A DNA stretch of 48,280 bases from the IMG/VR virus record IMGVR_UViG_3300030376_006356, positions 1-48,280 of that record, one strand, 5' to 3'. Of this stretch, positions 35,204 to 48,280 are shown in pieces. Origin of the DNA: a virus. Its lineage: Duplodnaviria; Caudoviricetes. The notes beneath the pieces are model-generated. The model had not been told where the DNA came from. It saw only the letters and a program-made list of their open reading frames with translations, and did no database searches. Position 1 is the stretch's first letter, and each line of letters starts with the position of its first letter. Both the position numbers and the translations under genes were made by a program.

Positions 35204-35276
35204 GGGGCTGTAACTCAGTTGGGAGAGTGCTTCCCTTGCACGGAAGAAGTCGTAGGTTCGAATCCTATCAGCTCCA
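35204..35276 (+). tRNA. tRNA-Ala(UGC), CCA not encoded
   Basis: GGGGCTG/CAGCTCC acceptor stem with G3:U70, CTTCC-CTTGCAC-GGAAG anticodon arm, GGTTCGAATCC T-arm, A73 followed by CAA. Confidence 0.97.
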
Positions 35277-35296
35277 CAATCCAAATGTAACAATTC

Positions 35297-40029: not shown

Positions 40030-40059
40030 TTGACTTATATGGCATTTTATTCGTATATT
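40030..40059 (+). promoter_or_regulatory. Class B promoter upstream of tRNA-Gly
   Basis: TTGACT-N18-TATATT, with an A-tract upstream. Confidence 0.75.
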
Positions 40060-40089: not shown

Positions 40090-40161
40090 GCGGAGTAAGA
40101 ATCAAGAGAGATTCGCTGGATTTCCAATTCAGAGGGTTAGGGGCAGTTCCTAAACTCCGCT
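40090..40161 (+). tRNA. Non-canonical tRNA-Gly(UCC)
   Basis: GCGGAGT/ACTCCGC acceptor stem with U73; GAAT/ATTC D-stem; CTGGA-TTTCCAA-TTCAG anticodon arm; TTAGG-GGCAGTT-CCTAA T-arm; no CCA. Confidence 0.85.
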
Positions 40162-40165
40162 CTAA

Positions 40166-40360
40166 GAGAAGAACGCTCATACTTGGGATGTAGTAATACA
40201 ACCTCAGTCCCTCAGCGTTCTCTCCTCACAATTATGTTCTTTAGTCATTACAGCACATTACTAAAATAATGATAACAAAATAAATCAAAACAATCGACTA
40301 CCGCAAGGCTGAACATATAAATGGTTATATACAAGGTGGTCCTTATAGGAGAATCCTTGT
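40166..40360 (+). ncRNA. Candidate structured non-coding RNA co-transcribed with tRNA-Gly
   Basis: Stems AGAACGCT/AGCGTTCT, TGTA-GTAA-TACA, TATGTTC/GAACATA, TAGTC/GACTA, CC-GCAA-GG and ACAAGG/CCTTGT; no plus-strand ORF in the track. Confidence 0.5.
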
Positions 40361-40362
40361 CT

Positions 40363-40403
40363 GGGCTCATCGTTTAACTCCTTTCCGATGGGCCCTTTTT
40401 TTT
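40363..40403 (+). terminator. Intrinsic terminator with anti-SD loop
   Basis: GGGCTCATCG-TTTAACTCCTTTC-CGATGGGCCC followed by T8. Confidence 0.85.
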
Positions 40404-40457
40404 GTTACAAACTGTTACAATTAAAAACTTGATTATTAGCCATATATGTTGTAATTT
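40403..40457 (+). promoter_or_regulatory. Class A promoter cassette 5
   Basis: TGTTACA-aac-TGTTACA, N9, TTGATT, N17, TAATTT. Confidence 0.8.
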
Positions 40458-40492
40458 ATAGTATAATGAAAAGGAAACAAAAAGGAGATTTT

Positions 40493-41668
40493 ATGAGTAA
40501 AACAATTCAAACGCCCGACGCTGTTGTTCGATGTGAATGGTCTGGTAATAGGGCAAATGCGTGGGATACAGACGGTAATAAGAGAACCTCTGAGATAACA
40601 GTCGGCGCTAGACAAAAAGCGGCTGATGGTAATTATCTATTAGGTAGGTTCACTAATAAGGCCGGTAAAACTTATTGGAAAAGATGGGATGGTGAAATAT
40701 CGTCTCCTGTCCACGATACCCCTTCAGTTGATGTTCCTACTGACCACGCTGAAGTTCTTAATTTTATACACACTTCTTACTCTTTAAAACCACGAAATCT
40801 AATGATGTCAGAACTTAAATGGAAGTATCTGGTTAGAAGTGGTGTCAGAGGTAAGAATATTATGATGACAGGCCCTGCTGGTTGTGGTAAGACTATGGCA
40901 GCAAAATCGTTGGTTAATTCTTTAGATAGGCCTGATTACTACTTTAACTTAGGTGCGACACAAGATCCTCGTTCTACTCTAATAGGTAATACTCACTTCG
41001 ATTCTAAGAAGGGAACTTACTTCGCTGAGTCACACTTCGTTAAAGCTATTCAAACACCAAATGCGGTTATATTATTAGATGAGTTATCAAGGGCTCACCC
41101 TGATGCTTGGAACATCTTAATGACTGTATTGGATTATGGACAAAGATATTTAAGGTTGGATGAATCGACTGGTTCAGACACTATTAAGGTTGCAGAGGGT
41201 GTTACCTTCGTAGCGACTGCAAACATCGGTAATGAGTATACTTCTACTCGTGTAATGGACAAGGCATTGATGGATAGGTTCACTATCGTTGAAATGGATG
41301 TCCTTACAGAGGAAGATGAGGCTACTCTATTGAACTATATGTTCCCTTCGGTGGATTCAGTATTATTAGGTAATGTGGCTAAGATAGCTACTCTAACCAG
41401 AACAGAGTCTAATAGTGAGACAGCGAGAATAACAAGTGGTATTTCTACAAGAACCACGGTTGAGTTGTGTGGGTTGTTATTCGATGGGTTCTCATTAGAA
41501 GAGAGTGCTGAAGTAAGTATCTACCCTCAGTATGACAACACAGGCGGTGTTGATAGTGAGAGAACCTTCGTGAAACAGATTGTTCAGAAGTTCTGTGACG
41601 ATGGCTCTTCAGATGACTTGTTCAATGAGGAAGAGATGGCTGAGGCTACTGAGGACACAAATTCATAG
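40493..41668 (+). CDS. MoxR/CbbQ/CobS-type AAA+ ATPase
   Basis: GPAGCGKT, LLDELSRA, VATANIG, DKALMDRF and ISTR motifs; AAAGGAG RBS. Confidence 0.9.
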   Translation: MSKTIQTPDAVVRCEWSGNRANAWDTDGNKRTSEITVGARQKAADGNYLLGRFTNKAGKTYWKRWDGEISSPVHDTPSVDVPTDHAEVLNFIHTSYSLKPRNLMMSELKWKYLVRSGVRGKNIMMTGPAGCGKTMAAKSLVNSLDRPDYYFNLGATQDPRSTLIGNTHFDSKKGTYFAESHFVKAIQTPNAVILLDELSRAHPDAWNILMTVLDYGQRYLRLDESTGSDTIKVAEGVTFVATANIGNEYTSTRVMDKALMDRFTIVEMDVLTEEDEATLLNYMFPSVDSVLLGNVAKIATLTRTESNSETARITSGISTRTTVELCGLLFDGFSLEESAEVSIYPQYDNTGGVDSERTFVKQIVQKFCDDGSSDDLFNEEEMAEATEDTNS

Positions 41669-41680
41669 GTAGGTAGTGTA

Positions 41681-41720
41681 GGGTGGCTCGTTTACTCCTT
41701 TTCTCGGGCCACCCCTTTTT
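41681..41720 (+). terminator. Intrinsic terminator with anti-SD loop
   Basis: GGGTGGCTCG-TTTACTCCTTTTCT-CGGGCCACCC followed by CTTTTT. Confidence 0.85.
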
Positions 41721-41864
41721 GACAACTTGAAAAGGTTTTTCGGAAAAAGGCTTTTATGTTAAATCGTCGCCTTATCGATAAGCATCTCGAACCTGGTTTT
41801 TTCAATACCAGATTAATAATACACTTCGTGTATCTACTGACTACACTTAGTATAAAGAAAAGGC

Positions 41865-41894
41865 TTGACTTATATGCATATTATGTATTATATT
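41865..41894 (+). promoter_or_regulatory. Class B promoter
   Basis: TTGACT-N18-TATATT, then AGGAG RBS. Confidence 0.75.
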
Positions 41895-41913
41895 ACAATA
41901 GGAGAATTTAAAT

Positions 41914-42432
41914 ATGATTAATGGAATTAAACCTAAAACATTACAATGTTCAAGATGTAGTGATGAGATGCCTTCTCAAAGATTAGATATGGGATACACT
42001 ATATGTATTAAGTGTTCTACTGAAGAGAAAGTTAGTTGTCATACCATATACCCACATAAGACAGGTGGTTATATTCAAGTTGTATCTAAAGAACAAAGTC
42101 AAAGATTAAATAGATTGGATAGAAGAGGTAGTTCTCAAAAGACAGCTAAGAACTATAAACCCTTTACCATTCAACCTACTGATGAACCTAAACAATATAA
42201 CCATCGTAAGTGCACTAAGACTTATACCACTTATGAAACTGCTTTACAAATGGTTAATCAATATTATGATGAATGGGGTTATAAACCTACATTGAAATAT
42301 TTAAGAAAACTAAACAGCTCAGGTGATATACCTTTAATGACACGAGTTAAGATTCAAGACATTATTACTGATAGGTATTTAGAACCTTCACCAAGAGCAT
42401 TAACACGACACTTTAACAATAGGAGAAAATAA
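41914..42432 (+). CDS. Protein with DksA/TraR-like C4 zinc finger
   Basis: CSRCSDEMPSQRLDMGYTICIKC fits CxxC.e.ip..RL......CxxC. Confidence 0.6.
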   Translation: MINGIKPKTLQCSRCSDEMPSQRLDMGYTICIKCSTEEKVSCHTIYPHKTGGYIQVVSKEQSQRLNRLDRRGSSQKTAKNYKPFTIQPTDEPKQYNHRKCTKTYTTYETALQMVNQYYDEWGYKPTLKYLRKLNSSGDIPLMTRVKIQDIITDRYLEPSPRALTRHFNNRRK

Positions 42433-42433
42433 T

Positions 42434-42664
42434 ATGATGGGTGCAAATTACGGAAGACGAAAAGAAGATACTAATGGAATATCTATGTTACCACAATGGA
42501 TGGATAAATTTATGAATGTATGTAAATACTTTCTATACATCGTTCCATTCTTATGTTGTAGTATAGCTATGTTATTAGAAGGAACATTAACAAGTCATAG
42601 TTATGTATTAACAGCAGTATGGTGTTTATCATTACTAAAATTAATTGACTTAGTAGAAAAATAA
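42434..42664 (+). CDS. Small membrane protein
   Basis: AGGAG RBS; two hydrophobic segments. Confidence 0.55.
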   Translation: MMGANYGRRKEDTNGISMLPQWMDKFMNVCKYFLYIVPFLCCSIAMLLEGTLTSHSYVLTAVWCLSLLKLIDLVEK

Positions 42665-42667
42665 TGC

Positions 42668-42697
42668 TTGACTTTAATATAAATTTATTCTTATATT
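42668..42697 (+). promoter_or_regulatory. Class B promoter heading the UvsE-Mom operon
   Basis: TTGACT-N18-TATATT. Confidence 0.65.
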
Positions 42698-42799
42698 ATG
42701 TTATCGAAACGATTTTTAATTAGACAAAAACAATGTTGTGGAAGGGGATGCTTAATGTGTCCCTATTCACCTAAACACACAGAAGGGAGTTATAAGGTT

Positions 42800-43717
42800 A
42801 TGAATAGAATGGGATACGCTTGTATCAATATGCAACTATCTTCACAAAAACCGAAGATATATACTGGTAGAAGTATGATTAAAAGAACCTTTAAAGATAA
42901 AGGTATTAAGTATGCATCTGAACTTGGTTTACAAAACACCAAAGATTTATTTGAGATTATCAAATGGAATAAAGAGAATGGATTTGATTTCTTTCGTATC
43001 ACATCTAATTTATTCCCGTGGAGTTCAGAATACAAATTAGAAGATATGCCCGACCATTGGGAGATTGCTGGTATATTGGGTGAGATTGGTAAATATGTAG
43101 ATGAACATAAAATGAGACTTACATCACATCCAGGCCCTTTCAATGTATTGACATCACCACACGAACATGTGGTTGAAAATTGTATCAAGGACTTATCCAT
43201 ACACGGAGAGGTATTTGATATGATGGGATTATCAAGAACACCATACAACAAAATCAATATACATATTGGTGGTGCTTATGGTGATAAGGTTTCAGCTATG
43301 GAAAGATTCTGTGAGAACTTCCATCGATTACCTAATAGTGTTAAATCAAGATTGACTGTTGAGAATGATGACAAGGCTACAATGTATTCAGTTAAGGATT
43401 TATATGAAGGTGTGTATTGTAAGATAGGGATTCCTATCGTATTTGATTACCACCATCATAGATTCTGCACAGGTGGATTATCAGAAGAAGACGCATTAGA
43501 GGTTGCTGTATCTACTTGGGGTGATGTTGTGCCTGTTGTTCATTATTCAGAATCAAGAAACATCGAACAAGAAGATGATAAGATTCGTCCACAGGCTCAT
43601 TCAGATTATGTGTATGATTACATTGATACCTATGGTAATGAGGTTGACATTATGGTGGAGGCTAAAGCTAAAGAACTCGCAGTATTGAAATACAAAGAAA
43701 TACACGAGGTAGTTTAA
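42800..43717 (+). CDS. uvsE: UV damage endonuclease (in-frame upstream extension from 42698)
   Basis: GYACIN, FFRITSNLFP, HPGPF, IHIGG, VENDD, FDYHHH, VHYSE, AHSDY and EAKAKE motifs. Confidence 0.93.
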   Translation: MNRMGYACINMQLSSQKPKIYTGRSMIKRTFKDKGIKYASELGLQNTKDLFEIIKWNKENGFDFFRITSNLFPWSSEYKLEDMPDHWEIAGILGEIGKYVDEHKMRLTSHPGPFNVLTSPHEHVVENCIKDLSIHGEVFDMMGLSRTPYNKINIHIGGAYGDKVSAMERFCENFHRLPNSVKSRLTVENDDKATMYSVKDLYEGVYCKIGIPIVFDYHHHRFCTGGLSEEDALEVAVSTWGDVVPVVHYSESRNIEQEDDKIRPQAHSDYVYDYIDTYGNEVDIMVEAKAKELAVLKYKEIHEVV

Positions 43718-44226
43718 TGCCGTTATCAAGATGGAGTAGAAGACACAAACGAACCTTTGGTAAAAAGAAACAAGATGAGTCAAAGGTATTTTTAGAAGAA
43801 CATAGAATACCACCTAAACCTACAGCTTATTATACTGAAGATAAAGGTAAGTGTAGATATTGTGGACATTGGATTTATACTGAACGAGGTGAATTGAATA
43901 CAAGAAAGTCTTGGCACTCACGATGTGCTGATGAGTATATGTTTATCTATCATTCAGGTGAAACACGAAAGTATATTTGGAAAAGAGATAATGGTGAATG
44001 TGCTCATTGTCACGAATTGTTTCCTTGGCGTTCTCGTAGAAATTCAGAGAAGTGGGATGTCGACCACATCAGGCCATTATGGGAACAAAAGGGTAAAACC
44101 TTTGATGAGATTGATTTAACATATTGGGAAGAAGAGAATTTACAAACCTTATGTTATAGTTGTCATAAGAAGAAGTCAGCAGATGAAGCTGCTCGTAGAG
44201 CTAAATTAAATAAGGAGAAAAAGTAA
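43717..44226 (+). CDS. HNH endonuclease
   Basis: RDNGECAHC, VDHIRPL and NLQTLCYSCHKKK; additional N-terminal CRYC finger. Confidence 0.9.
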   Translation: MPLSRWSRRHKRTFGKKKQDESKVFLEEHRIPPKPTAYYTEDKGKCRYCGHWIYTERGELNTRKSWHSRCADEYMFIYHSGETRKYIWKRDNGECAHCHELFPWRSRRNSEKWDVDHIRPLWEQKGKTFDEIDLTYWEEENLQTLCYSCHKKKSADEAARRAKLNKEKK

Positions 44227-44696
44227 TGAAACAAATATTGAAACATAAAATAAACTACAAGCAAGTATCTAAAGGATTAGGTATATCAGAAGACTTAGTA
44301 GTTAAGTTTTTTAATGATGGTCGTATAATAGGTAGACTTGGTGAGTTTATATTAGAAGATAAAGATGTAGGTAAGAGAAGTGATAATGAAGGAACATCTT
44401 ATGACAATGTAACTGATGATAATAAACATTTAGAAGTTAGGTCTATAACTAATAGATTATCTTTTGCACCATCAAAAGAAACTGGTTATGGTAGAACAGT
44501 AACAGAAGAGGGTTTTAATGAAAAGTTAAATGCTGTAGATTCATTTGTAGCTATTGACTTTAAAGATAATCCAAGTCAATTAGATTTCTACAAAATACAA
44601 TCAGAGGATGTTAAACGCTGGTGTGATGAGGGGTTTATTGGTAAAGGTAAAGCAGTATCAAGAAATAAAATATTGTCTAAAATTGAAAGTAACTAA
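44226..44696 (+). CDS. Hypothetical protein, PD-(D/E)XK restriction-endonuclease-like
   Basis: GRLGE...SYD.......LEVRS spacing matches motifs I-III, with Arg in place of Lys. Confidence 0.45.
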   Translation: MKQILKHKINYKQVSKGLGISEDLVVKFFNDGRIIGRLGEFILEDKDVGKRSDNEGTSYDNVTDDNKHLEVRSITNRLSFAPSKETGYGRTVTEEGFNEKLNAVDSFVAIDFKDNPSQLDFYKIQSEDVKRWCDEGFIGKGKAVSRNKILSKIESN

Positions 44697-45409
44697 TGAG
44701 TTTTTTTGATTATAGTAATCAATATGATTATCCTATATTTTTTGAGGAATGTAAAGTTCCTCAACAAACAAAGATATTCAGAGAGTTAATTAATAAGTAT
44801 CATTCTTATGTCAAGTATTCGGATGTTCCTCAACGAAGAATAAACTATCTTATATACAGAACATCAGATAGTAAAGTTATAGGAGCTATTGGTATATCAT
44901 CTTGTGTTCTTGCTATATCAGTTAGAGATAACTATATAGGATGGGATAAGGAAACAAGATTAAAGAACTCTAATATGGTTGCTAATAATTATAGGTTTTG
45001 TTTAGCGCCCGACAATGGTATAAAGAATGTGGGAACTATGGCTCTTAAACTACTTCGTGTAGAAGGTGGTAAGAGATGGAAAGAAAAGTATGGTGATGAT
45101 TTGGTTATGTTAGAAACATTTGTCCAACCACTTATAAAGGGTAGTGATAATAAAAGAAATGGTGCTGTGTATTTAGCAGACAATTGGAGTATGGTTGGTA
45201 AGACAAAGGGAACATCAATCAAGAAAGCACCTGTATCATTGTGGCAAAGAGAAGATAGCACAAGAGGTGAACTATCAAGAAGAGACCCAGCTGCAGCTAT
45301 TAAGAAGTATGCTGTGGGTAGAGAACATTATGTGATAACCGAATCACCTATTAAAAAAGTTTTTATCAAACCACTTAATAAGAAATGGAAGAAGATGTTG
45401 AATGGATAA
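44696..45409 (+). CDS. DUF4338 (DruA-like) / Mom-superfamily GNAT protein
   Basis: INKYHSY, IGAIG, NNYRFCL, LETFV and GAVYLADNW..VGKTKG motifs. Confidence 0.75.
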   Translation: MSFFDYSNQYDYPIFFEECKVPQQTKIFRELINKYHSYVKYSDVPQRRINYLIYRTSDSKVIGAIGISSCVLAISVRDNYIGWDKETRLKNSNMVANNYRFCLAPDNGIKNVGTMALKLLRVEGGKRWKEKYGDDLVMLETFVQPLIKGSDNKRNGAVYLADNWSMVGKTKGTSIKKAPVSLWQREDSTRGELSRRDPAAAIKKYAVGREHYVITESPIKKVFIKPLNKKWKKMLNG

Positions 45410-46145
45410 ATATTGTGATACATCTAAACTATCTGTCAGACAAATAGATAAACCAACTGCTAAGAAGATGGTTGTTAAATACCATTACTCTAAACTATGG
45501 ACTAAGTGTAGTGTAGCATTAGGTTTGTTTATTGATACAGGTAAGGAACATTCATTCTTTGATGAGGCTGAAGAGAAAATGGTTGGTGTGATTGTATATG
45601 GAGACCCAATCGGAAGATTGACTGGACAATCCATATCAGATGAAATAAAAAGAACTGAAGTATTGGAACTCACGAGACTATTTATACACGATGGTTATGG
45701 AAGTAATATTGAATCTTGGTTTATATCTCAATCCTTTAATTGGTTACGAAAAAACAAATCAGAAATCAAAGCTCTTATATCCTACGCTTCTCCTGTTGAG
45801 GGACATAGTGGAACAATCTATCAAGCAACGAATTGGATTTATCAAGGTAACAACAATCGTTGGAATGATGGTTGGATATTTAAGTTCGAAGAAGATGGTA
45901 GATGGATTCATGGAAGAACTATCTTCCCACATTACAAAACTAATGACCCATATGAAATACAGAAACAAGTTAACAAAACTTTTTGGATAAGGAAAGAATT
46001 ACAGAAACATAGATATGTTTATATCTTGGCTGGTAAGAGAATAAAGAAGAGGATAATGAAAACATTAAAACATGAAACCTTACCATATCCAAAGTCAAGA
46101 GATACAAATGAATCAGAAATAATAACATTGGAGCCAGTTAAATGA
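45402..46145 (+). CDS. Mom-family adenine-modifying GNAT enzyme
   Basis: KYHYS, GVIVYG, LELTRL, ESWFISQS, LISYA....GHSGTIYQATNWIYQG and KHRYVY motifs. Confidence 0.85.
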   Translation: MDKYCDTSKLSVRQIDKPTAKKMVVKYHYSKLWTKCSVALGLFIDTGKEHSFFDEAEEKMVGVIVYGDPIGRLTGQSISDEIKRTEVLELTRLFIHDGYGSNIESWFISQSFNWLRKNKSEIKALISYASPVEGHSGTIYQATNWIYQGNNNRWNDGWIFKFEEDGRWIHGRTIFPHYKTNDPYEIQKQVNKTFWIRKELQKHRYVYILAGKRIKKRIMKTLKHETLPYPKSRDTNESEIITLEPVK

Positions 46146-46801: not shown

Positions 46802-47377
46802 ATGAAGAACAAAAAAAATAAATACATACTAATAACAAAGGACTTACAAAAGAATCTTATAGATTTTTTAGATGAAGTTCAATTAGAAGCAGCTAAACTT
46901 AATACAACTGATAATATGCATATAGTTAATTTCTGTTCGTTTGCAATTGAAGAATTATTAAGTGGACTTGATGCTGAAGTAAAAAAGAAACATAAACCTC
47001 AAAAGAAATCAAGAGACCAATACTTGGATGAAACATTTATGGATTGGAATCTACCTGAGATGTCCGATGAAGAATACAATAAACTTGTAGACCAAGTAGA
47101 TGGATTCTTGAGAGGTTGGGAAAAAGAATATCAAAAGAAACATCCAAACGAACCTATACAAAAGAGACCATACAAACCAGAAGTTGATGATGTAATGGAG
47201 TATTGTTCATTAGATGAGATAATTGATTTTCTTAAAGACGACCCTGAGTTATCTGATGAAGAACGATTCGAATTATATTATGATGAGAGAGATAAAAGAA
47301 GAGAAAAGAAATCAGGTATGTCGTATGAACAATTGTTAAAGAAGTCTGGCGTATTACCACCATCAACTAAGAAATAG
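46802..47377 (+). CDS. Acidic hypothetical protein
   Basis: AAGGAGG RBS preceded by TATATTTATATA. Confidence 0.65.
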   Translation: MKNKKNKYILITKDLQKNLIDFLDEVQLEAAKLNTTDNMHIVNFCSFAIEELLSGLDAEVKKKHKPQKKSRDQYLDETFMDWNLPEMSDEEYNKLVDQVDGFLRGWEKEYQKKHPNEPIQKRPYKPEVDDVMEYCSLDEIIDFLKDDPELSDEERFELYYDERDKRREKKSGMSYEQLLKKSGVLPPSTKK

Positions 47378-48280
47378 TTTCTCTTCTTCATCCTTGATGT
47401 AGTTACCAATATCTTTACCCTTTAATCCTTTAGATATAGCATCCTTTGCTGTAATGGATAACTTCCAATTCCACAACTTCATTATGTATTTGTTGGAGTT
47501 GATATTAACCCATTGTTTAATTTGTGATGTAGTGAGTTTACTATTGTCTTGTAGTTTCTTATATGATGGTAAGTCTTTAATCACTTCAGCTGGTCTTGAT
47601 AACTGAATCAACAATGATATATCCTTAACCTCTTGATTAGTATATTTCAAACTATTTAATTTAGATTTAACTTTATCCACACCATTGGTTTGTAACATAT
47701 ATGCAATCTGTAATTTATAATCATTGGTATCTACTTTTCTATGTAGAACACTTAGTCCAGGAAAGATTTGTTTAAACATTCCCAATGTTCTTAACATTTT
47801 AAAATAGTTGGGAACATTCTTAGCTTTGGTGACACCCTTGATAAATTCATCTCTTATACGCTCCGCTGATACTCCTGATATATCGGAGTTCTGTTTAAGG
47901 GCGCTCCAAGTATCTTTAGTCATCTTACCACCAACACTACCAGCGAATCTAACGGCCCGAAGTTTACGAAGTGGGTCTTCATCAAATCTATCCTCTGCTT
48001 TACCAACGGTTCTGATTTTCTTTTTCTTCAAGTCAGCTATACCACCAACTAAGTCAACGATTTGTTTCTTACCAATATCGTAGAATAAAGCATTGATGGT
48101 TAAGTCTCTTCTCTTAACATCACCTTTAATATCTGTGAAGTCAACTGAATCAGGTCTTCTTCCCTTACCAATATCTTTTCTGAATGTAGCAATCTCGTGT
48201 CCACCTATAATCACAACACCGAATTGTTTTCCAACCTCTACTGATTTGAATCCACCTTGTTTTGCAATATCCAATACTTC
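47363..48280 (-). CDS. cca: tRNA nucleotidyltransferase (CCA-adding/poly(A) polymerase class II), 5' end outside window
   Basis: EIATFR, RRDLTINAL, EDPLRKLRAVRF and SAERIRDE motifs; frame open to the window edge. Confidence 0.85.
   Translation of the reverse strand, partial: EVLDIAKQGGFKSVEVGKQFGVVIIGGHEIATFRKDIGKGRRPDSVDFTDIKGDVKRRDLTINALFYDIGKKQIVDLVGGIADLKKKKIRTVGKAEDRFDEDPLRKLRAVRFAGSVGGKMTKDTWSALKQNSDISGVSAERIRDEFIKGVTKAKNVPNYFKMLRTLGMFKQIFPGLSVLHRKVDTNDYKLQIAYMLQTNGVDKVKSKLNSLKYTNQEVKDISLLIQLSRPAEVIKDLPSYKKLQDNSKLTTSQIKQWVNINSNKYIMKLWNWKLSITAKDAISKGLKGKDIGNYIKDEEEKLFLS

Follow-up and report, generated by a model that had tools for sequence, protein, structure and literature searches.

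A rebuilt phage tRNA-Gly, from a family physically tied to mom genes, is a likely private glycyl donor for Mom

Organization of the locus

The DNA analyzed here, referred to as the window, is the 48,280-nt stretch covering positions 1 to 48,280 of the viral record IMGVR_UViG_3300030376_006356 (Duplodnaviria; Caudoviricetes), a 48-kb record of 30% G+C from a lineage of large phages (the contig of one relative measures 113 kb). Its plus strand carries at 40090–40164 a non-canonical tRNA-Gly(UCC), here termed class I, supported by its cloverleaf fold, homologues and covariation. Further downstream on the same strand lie two tandem genes with overlapping open reading frames (ORFs), one for a DUF4338/DruA-like protein with a predicted Mom-type GNAT fold (44696–45409; PF14236, E 4e-23; AlphaFold model) and one for a Mom-family GNAT (45402–46145; PF25680, E 2.5e-47; phmmer to the Mu Mom structure 8bv8, E 4.8e-11). 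The RNA is separated by 4.5 kb from the former gene and by 5.2 kb from mom; a previous reading made from the sequence alone had placed a tRNA-Gly about 4.5 kb upstream of tandem DUF4338 and Mom genes, and both the positions and the Pfam matches agree with it. This RNA belongs to a conserved family of rebuilt tRNA-Gly with a physical link to mom, and we consider it likely that it acts as a private glycyl donor.

The RNA folds as a full cloverleaf with 7/5/5/5 pairs. The stability of this fold is modest evidence by itself (z -2.29, with 5/200 shuffles equally stable). The UCC anticodon occupies 40123–40125 and is flanked by U33 and A37, and G1-C72, C2-G71, G3-C70 and U73 are all present. Position 8 is A for U, the D loop (AAGAGA) is devoid of G18G19, the T loop (GGCAGUU) lacks UUC, the pair 51-63 is A-U, and the 3′ end reads CUA, with CCA not encoded. 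Such a molecule escapes the usual detection tools: ARAGORN at default settings missed it (a tRNA-Ala at 35204 was its only call in the window) and at lowered thresholds returned noise only, the RNA being called solely in mitochondrial mode; Rfam gave no match to it at gathering and E-value thresholds.

The class I family and its nesting in mom

We found an orthologue of the RNA at the same site before the AAA gene in L004; its anticodon is ACC, and the changes in its stems are compensatory. A search with the D arm returned 7 loci, 5 of them true, including one from an unrelated phage, where it is placed in frame inside the 5′ end of mom; 9/120 homologues of the Mom protein of that phage start with translated RNA. 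Exact or near-exact anticodon-arm patterns of the window RNA found no match in viral contigs, and blastn of RNAs of class I and of a second class described below gave no real match among INPHARED phages. The pattern finally used for class I fixed letters of the D loop, variable region and T loop only, and held no glycine identity letter and nothing of mom.

With this pattern, 65/70 viral loci fold, while the five that do not are all without mom. Among the 65 true loci, the RNA is located at the 3′ end of mom in 53 and at the 5′ end in three, in frame 0 in every case; 52 of the 53 3′-end copies are read through and one contains a stop at RNA bases 7–9. In three further loci mom is 2.2–8.1 kb distant, and in six no mom was found in the fetched DNA, one of these being cut by the contig end. 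Of these six, the records of L044/L080 and L050 carry two mom genes each elsewhere, and the records of L075 and L077 are fragmentary (17% and 3%). In species genomes, 26/28 loci are true and 24/26 are nested in mom; as for the other two, the upstream DNA of one is too short and the second lies in a mom fragment. The genomic loci are mostly labelled Planctomycetota, and all six that were checked show prophage context (terminase, portal or primase neighbours). Chance rows were excluded from the counts (L031, L034, L042, L073, L076; L100, L109; L007, L010).

Frame 0 is open in 43/46 embedded copies and interrupted by a stop in 7/8 free ones, and the window copy has a stop at bases 7–9 in the frame that nested copies hold open. 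At 40% identity the nesting Mom proteins fall into many clusters, and they occupy many branches of a tree, which is a quick version in which L154 is represented by its downstream Mom paralogue though its RNA ends the upstream one. Two other arrangements were observed: at L027:1364–1438 the RNA is located right behind a promoter and right before mom, whose frame opens within the RNA with no clear start codon, and at L133:1430–1504 it lies right behind a promoter with its 3′ end overlapping the mom start codon.

The RNA is not a chance fold, because its homologues covary: 16/22 pairs are changed on both sides in 39 sequences, the covariation score was equalled by 0/500 shuffles, and 96.9% of cells in the cloverleaf are paired across the family. 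We further examined 53 distinct copies, for whose selection no feature other than the D, anticodon and T stems was used. They retain G1-C72, C2-G71, C35 and C36 (53/53 each) and U73 (52/53), that is, the determinants of glycyl-tRNA synthetase (GlyRS) (PMC9976931), whereas base 34 is free (C in 37, A in 11, U in five). The single A73, the archaeal glycine discriminator (PMC9976931), is found at L096:5989–6063, where the RNA lies at the mom 3′ end with an archaeal Hjc gene alongside; the contig bears the label Methanosarcinales. This match is one case, and L133, which has no host label, has A73 too. The L096 element also encodes an integrase and a primase.

In turn, the features of a translating tRNA are gone: A8 is found in 53/53 copies, U33 in just 28/53, G18G19 and the UUC T-loop in none, and close relatives have 8-base anticodon loops. 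The pair G51-C63 is the form that binds EF-Tu tightly. It occurs in 0/53 class I copies vs. 91/118 normal-length tRNA-Gly. Pairs 49-65, 50-64 and 51-63 determine EF-Tu affinity (PMC11231383), and the replaced bases suggest that the class I RNA would escape EF-Tu. Fold, covariation and conserved letters thus uphold what the sequence-only reading had proposed of this RNA, namely that it is a real tRNA-Gly(UCC) with GlyRS identity elements, and the 53 copies, devoid of U8, G18G19, the UUC T-loop and G51-C63, likewise confirm its claim that translation features are lost.

The nested copies also allow the protein and the RNA to be told apart as the object of conservation. The anticodon is read as a codon of the ORF in 46 copies nested in or adjacent to mom. 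This places C36 (46/46) and U73 (45/46) at silent third positions, whereas any of the four bases occurs at position 33; therefore, the constraint acts on the RNA. A C-terminal protein motif, SRE..P..GQFR, had been considered as the cause of the DNA conservation and was rejected by this silent-site test and by the free-standing copies.

A second class of tRNA-Gly at mom genes

A second form (class II), the search for which was prompted by protein P0204, was defined by a normal T loop and one extra base before the acceptor strand. The scan covered 46/64 parts of the data and gave at least 120 loci (L196–L315), 80 of them with long flanks. The RNA overlaps a mom ORF in 70 of these 80, in a single frame in 68; 58 copies sit at the 5′ end of the gene and 12 at its 3′ end. 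Most often an A, the extra base is situated between pairs 50-64 and 51-63 of the T-stem; the loops are normal, but the anticodon loops have mostly eight bases. The host mom genes belong to many subfamilies, and some of them encode short Mom-like proteins (L201, L204 and the L238 group). By contrast, the same pattern at normal length, taken as control from 2/64 parts, has mom at 0/80 long and 1/43 short loci, and the lone control locus with mom is a hybrid whose D arm resembles that of class I. The co-occurrence of the RNA family with Mom genes, which the sequence-only reading had proposed as a test, is found as nesting in mom, well beyond what was expected, and the normal-length control set does not share it.

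In L400, a hybrid RNA that combines a class I-like D arm with a normal T loop is placed at the 3′ end of mom and may bridge the two classes.

Mom, the DUF4338 protein and a second RNA in the window lineage

In the window lineage the class I RNA is free-standing, has its own promoter and is often duplicated, the copies in L044, L446 and L447 showing covarying stems; the free-standing homologues of L022, L023, L050 and L446 have promoters similar to that of the window 46–209 nt upstream. Only three of the 73 metagenome DUF4338 loci (L445–L447) reach the region upstream of the AAA gene, and all three carry the RNA and two Mom paralogues and reproduce the window layout. We observed two to four tandem Mom paralogues in close relatives (L001:1816–4904; L439, L443, L445–L447, L452); the DUF4338 gene, HNH and DUF6998 are freely interspersed with them. 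Several Mom enzymes per phage have been listed for some phages (PMC7824862).

The DUF4338 protein (237 amino acids) passes the Pfam PF14236 cut-off and is in addition similar to Mom, with a PHROG Mom-like match at E 7.4e-5 and an hhalign probability of 87% to the Mom alignment. Its alignment-based AlphaFold model has a pLDDT (predicted local distance difference test) of 85, compared with 31 for the single-sequence model. The top Foldseek match of this model is Mu Mom 8bv8 (E 3.8e-8), and in VIA the model aligns with Mu Mom at Z 14.6 (root-mean-square deviation 4.0, 172 residues aligned), other GNATs reaching Z of at most 13.3, i.e., a margin of 1.3. H36, R100 and Y159 are invariant in 33/33 proteins and are located at the places of Mom H58, R111 and Y159; the S124 and D149 places are not clearly kept in hhalign. 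By profile and model the neighbour of mom is a Mom-like GNAT, and we regard it as a possible, though less than likely, second user of the RNA. The stronger claim of the sequence-only reading, i.e., a second DNA-modifying enzyme fed by the RNA, is not supported: what we found is a Mom-like fold and no nested RNA.

Directly behind the tRNA-Gly-like RNA lies a second conserved structured RNA (40166–40229, plus strand), recognized by a covarying stem and a conserved position in relatives. It consists of a bulged stem, an internal loop with fixed sequences, a variable apical hairpin and an unpaired pyrimidine-rich 3′ tail, has no Rfam match, and occupies the same position in L005/L022, L011/L044, L445, L446 and L447 (L005:10070–10182), with 7/17 pairs changed on both sides in six sequences. 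A gene for a DUF2828 protein lies near it in the relatives L005 and L008. It is our guess that the second RNA could be a Y-RNA-like partner. The RNA pair is followed by a gene for a MoxR-like AAA ATPase (40466–41668, plus strand; Pfam AAA_5, E 1.7e-17), a synteny marker that trails the pair in the same order in L004/L005, L011 and L445–L447.

A private glycyl donor for Mom and the alternatives

For Mu Mom, Gly-tRNA-Gly has been demonstrated as the donor, and Gly-tRNA-Ala is rejected (PMC13219725); the sequence-only reading had named Gly-tRNA as a donor put forward for Mom, and this is now settled for the Mu enzyme. By analogy, the class I RNA would receive CCA and be charged by the host GlyRS, and the charged RNA would bind EF-Tu and the ribosome poorly. 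Mom would then transfer glycine from it to adenine N6 of the phage DNA and so counter host restriction. In the nested form a single transcript would yield either message or donor, and in the window lineage the promoter-driven RNA would act in trans as the donor for one to four Mom paralogues. The link between RNA and Mom is strong across genomes and indirect in the window, and we infer the mechanism, namely charging, CCA addition, EF-Tu escape and preferential use by Mom. The core idea of the sequence-only reading, a tRNA-Gly of probably non-translating type tied to mom, stands as a property of the family; the feeding of the DUF4338 protein is not supported, and the promoter and CCA-enzyme links are too generic to be specific.

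Several observations weigh against a donor role. In the window the RNA stands alone in a transcription unit separate from that of mom, and as both are common in the lineage their co-occurrence there is not independent evidence; it is the nested relatives that carry the link. The loci are themselves related to one another, so their counts are not independent events and the p-values overstate the evidence, but the nesting Moms are spread widely over clusters and tree branches. A G7-A66 mismatch is present in 38/53 copies, many copies have no encoded CCA, and no RNA is nested in any DUF4338-type gene among the loci checked. In the reverse direction, class I was found within 1.5 kb of 3/80 mom loci (the best 80 of 574, from one subfamily), two of the three being contigs already counted, and neither RNA class is present at the mom loci of 5/5 cultured phages, including D108. 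A search of three fragments with mom, 13–24% complete, gave no match to the RNA model, a result that carries no weight. The RNA is an accessory to Mom, and most mom genes are without one. Such a status is to be expected, because Mu Mom accepts all three ordinary E. coli tRNA-Gly and is active with each (PMC13219725).

The sequence of the window Mom also counts against the donor reading. In alignment with D108 Mom, the protein keeps the equivalents of H58, Y59, R111, S124, Y159 and W181 but has Ser130 at the D149 place and Val132 at the R151 place. R111 and S124 are essential in Mu Mom, D149 and R151 are needed for activity, and loss of D149 greatly reduces it (PMC13219725). R151 is not conserved across the Mom family, while Ser at the D149 place is found in 116/120 close relatives of the window Mom and Asp in 119/120 members of another subfamily. 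Because Ser replaces D149 as a subfamily rule, the activity of the window Mom is uncertain as judged from its residues. Lineage relatives carry Mom paralogues with Asp at this place.

The same facts may be read differently. The RNA could be a cis-regulator, i.e., a tRNA-Gly mimic in the mom mRNA that is read by Mom, GlyRS or RNase P and whose folding or cutting limits a host-toxic enzyme, the free copies being escaped remnants or decoys that titrate Mom. The in-frame position of 56/65 viral and 24/26 genomic class I copies in the mom ORF favours such a regulator, as does a frame mostly kept open in embedded copies and mostly closed in free ones, and there is a precedent in selC within selB (PMC8124441). 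We nevertheless regard this as unlikely, since the free copies are intact, have their own promoters and are duplicated with covarying stems, the full GlyRS set is retained, including anticodon C35/C36 and a host-matched discriminator, and the position of the RNA relative to mom varies (5′, 3′, free). A regulatory role would in any case be compatible with a donor role rather than exclude it.

Distinctly unlikely, in our judgment, is a charged, non-translating tRNA-Gly with a role outside Mom, either as a decoy or spare in the face of anticodon nucleases and of host toxins that attack tRNA-Gly, or as donor for another GNAT such as DUF4338 or a cell-surface enzyme. It would account for the 5.2 kb and the separate transcription unit between RNA and mom in the window, for the missing D149, and for L075, where a DruA-like gene and the RNA occur and mom does not, in a 17%-complete record; moreover, TacT reads U73 and G71 of Gly-tRNA-Gly (PMC9976931). 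A decoy, however, needs no nesting, yet 80/91 class I and 70/80 class II copies are nested in mom as opposed to 0/80 controls, and in close relatives the same genes are accompanied by two to four paralogues of Mom. Nesting likewise speaks against an ordinary, if odd-looking, phage tRNA-Gly that supplements translation, as do A8 in 53/53 copies, the missing G18G19 and UUC, U33 in 28/53, G51-C63 in 0/53, the 8-base anticodon loops of close relatives and a wobble base that is free and includes A34. The window copy does have a complete cloverleaf, the UCC anticodon, U33 and A37, and GGA is the second commonest glycine codon of the window (250, behind GGU with 465), but we hold this explanation to be very improbable.

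If the donor reading is right, this would be the first phage-encoded non-translating tRNA to serve as a substrate of DNA modification, and it would allow a phage to glycylate its genome without draining host translation, a cost raised in the Mom paper (PMC13219725). In a literature search, with subscription journals mostly outside it, we found no earlier proposal that a phage encodes a glycyl donor for Mom. The RNA would also provide a ready co-substrate for Mom-tRNA structures, and it brings to light a tRNA family overlooked by ARAGORN and Rfam. A wider proposal, which we put forward as speculative, is that phages remodelled tRNA-Gly at least twice, with the elbow rebuilt or with a bulge at the EF-Tu site, into a cofactor of DNA hypermodification that is usually kept in frame in the gene of its enzyme and was freed in the window lineage to feed Mom paralogues and the DUF4338/DruA GNAT; Druantia DruA might then be a Gly-tRNA-dependent DNA modifier too. 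For the DUF4338/DruA family, this would provide a chemistry that can be tested.

Comparison with known systems

One of the closest known systems is Mu Mom (PF25680, PDB 8BV8; Silva et al., 2026, PMC13219725), a GNAT to which the window protein is alike (E 4.8e-11) and whose use of Gly-tRNA-Gly on adenine N6 it would share. Mu Mom, however, scavenges host tRNA-Gly of any isoacceptor, the locus of the Mu-like phage D108 has no such RNA, and Mu Mom has D149/R151 where the window Mom has Ser and Val. The sections of the Mom paper covered make no mention of a phage-encoded donor.

The RNA itself can be compared with the non-proteogenic tRNA-Gly of staphylococci, which are without G18G19, U55 and the EF-Tu determinants of the T-stem (PMC13443448, PMC9976931). 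Both keep glycine identity, have lost G18G19 and U55 and have replaced the 49-65/51-63 determinants, and in both the partner is a GNAT-fold aminoacyl transferase. The phage RNA differs in being phage-borne, in its D and T loop sequences and in being usually nested in the ORF of its partner, which is of the Mom family and not a Fem peptidoglycan transferase; its target would be DNA instead of peptidoglycan.

A tRNA-Gly-like locus inside a mom gene is already known, without a function. In Dehalococcoides ssrA islands, a conserved tRNA-Gly-like "pseudo-tRNA" with a DCC anticodon is located within the first 150 bp of mom (McMurdie et al., 2011, PMC3146451); the parts of that paper used here mention it in passing as a primer target and give no function. 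It probably represents class II, because automatic pipelines flag it, unlike the free-standing class I RNA of the window, which is invisible to default ARAGORN and Rfam. Nesting as such has a parallel in selC within selB of Alphaproteobacteria, where a tRNA gene lies in frame inside the ORF of its binding protein and a processing feedback has been proposed (Mukai, 2021, PMC8124441); yet, selC tRNA translates, whereas the class I RNA would not, and the window copy is not nested. As for Druantia DruA (PF14236, DUF4338), the 44696–45409 protein passes its Pfam cut-off but differs from it in lying beside mom, with no other Druantia genes seen around it and with a model closest to Mu Mom.

Promoters, nucleotidyltransferase and other features of the window

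A sigma70-like promoter, TTGACT-N18-TATATT, precedes the class I RNA (40030–40059, plus strand), and another of the same form (42668–42697, plus strand) heads the uvsE-HNH-DUF6998-DruA-like-mom run, whose genes overlap stop to start. The sequence-only reading had linked the two units through this promoter. The promoter does stand before both, but it belongs to a generic phage class and is also found at 41865 and 32497, upstream of unrelated genes, and we rejected it as a specific link. A similar fate befell the tRNA nucleotidyltransferase of the CCA-adding class II family (47363–48280, minus strand; PF01743/PF12627), which does lie 1.2 kb beyond mom; it is encoded on the other strand, with its 5′ end cut by the contig end. 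The best NCBIfam match of this truncated protein is CCA tRNA nucleotidyltransferase (E 6.4e-42, below the cut-off), and PHROG also assigns it to tRNA nucleotidyltransferases, which makes a CCA rather than a poly(A) type a tentative assignment. The enzyme could mature both the class I RNA and the tRNA-Ala, whose gene is CCA-less as well, and was thus rejected as a specific partner of the RNA or mom.

The tRNA-Ala(UGC), located at 35204–35277, is canonical. Finally, we observed that the region 2195–32491 is occupied by a long gene run which, as judged from the translations, resembles glycosyltransferases and nucleotide-sugar enzymes.

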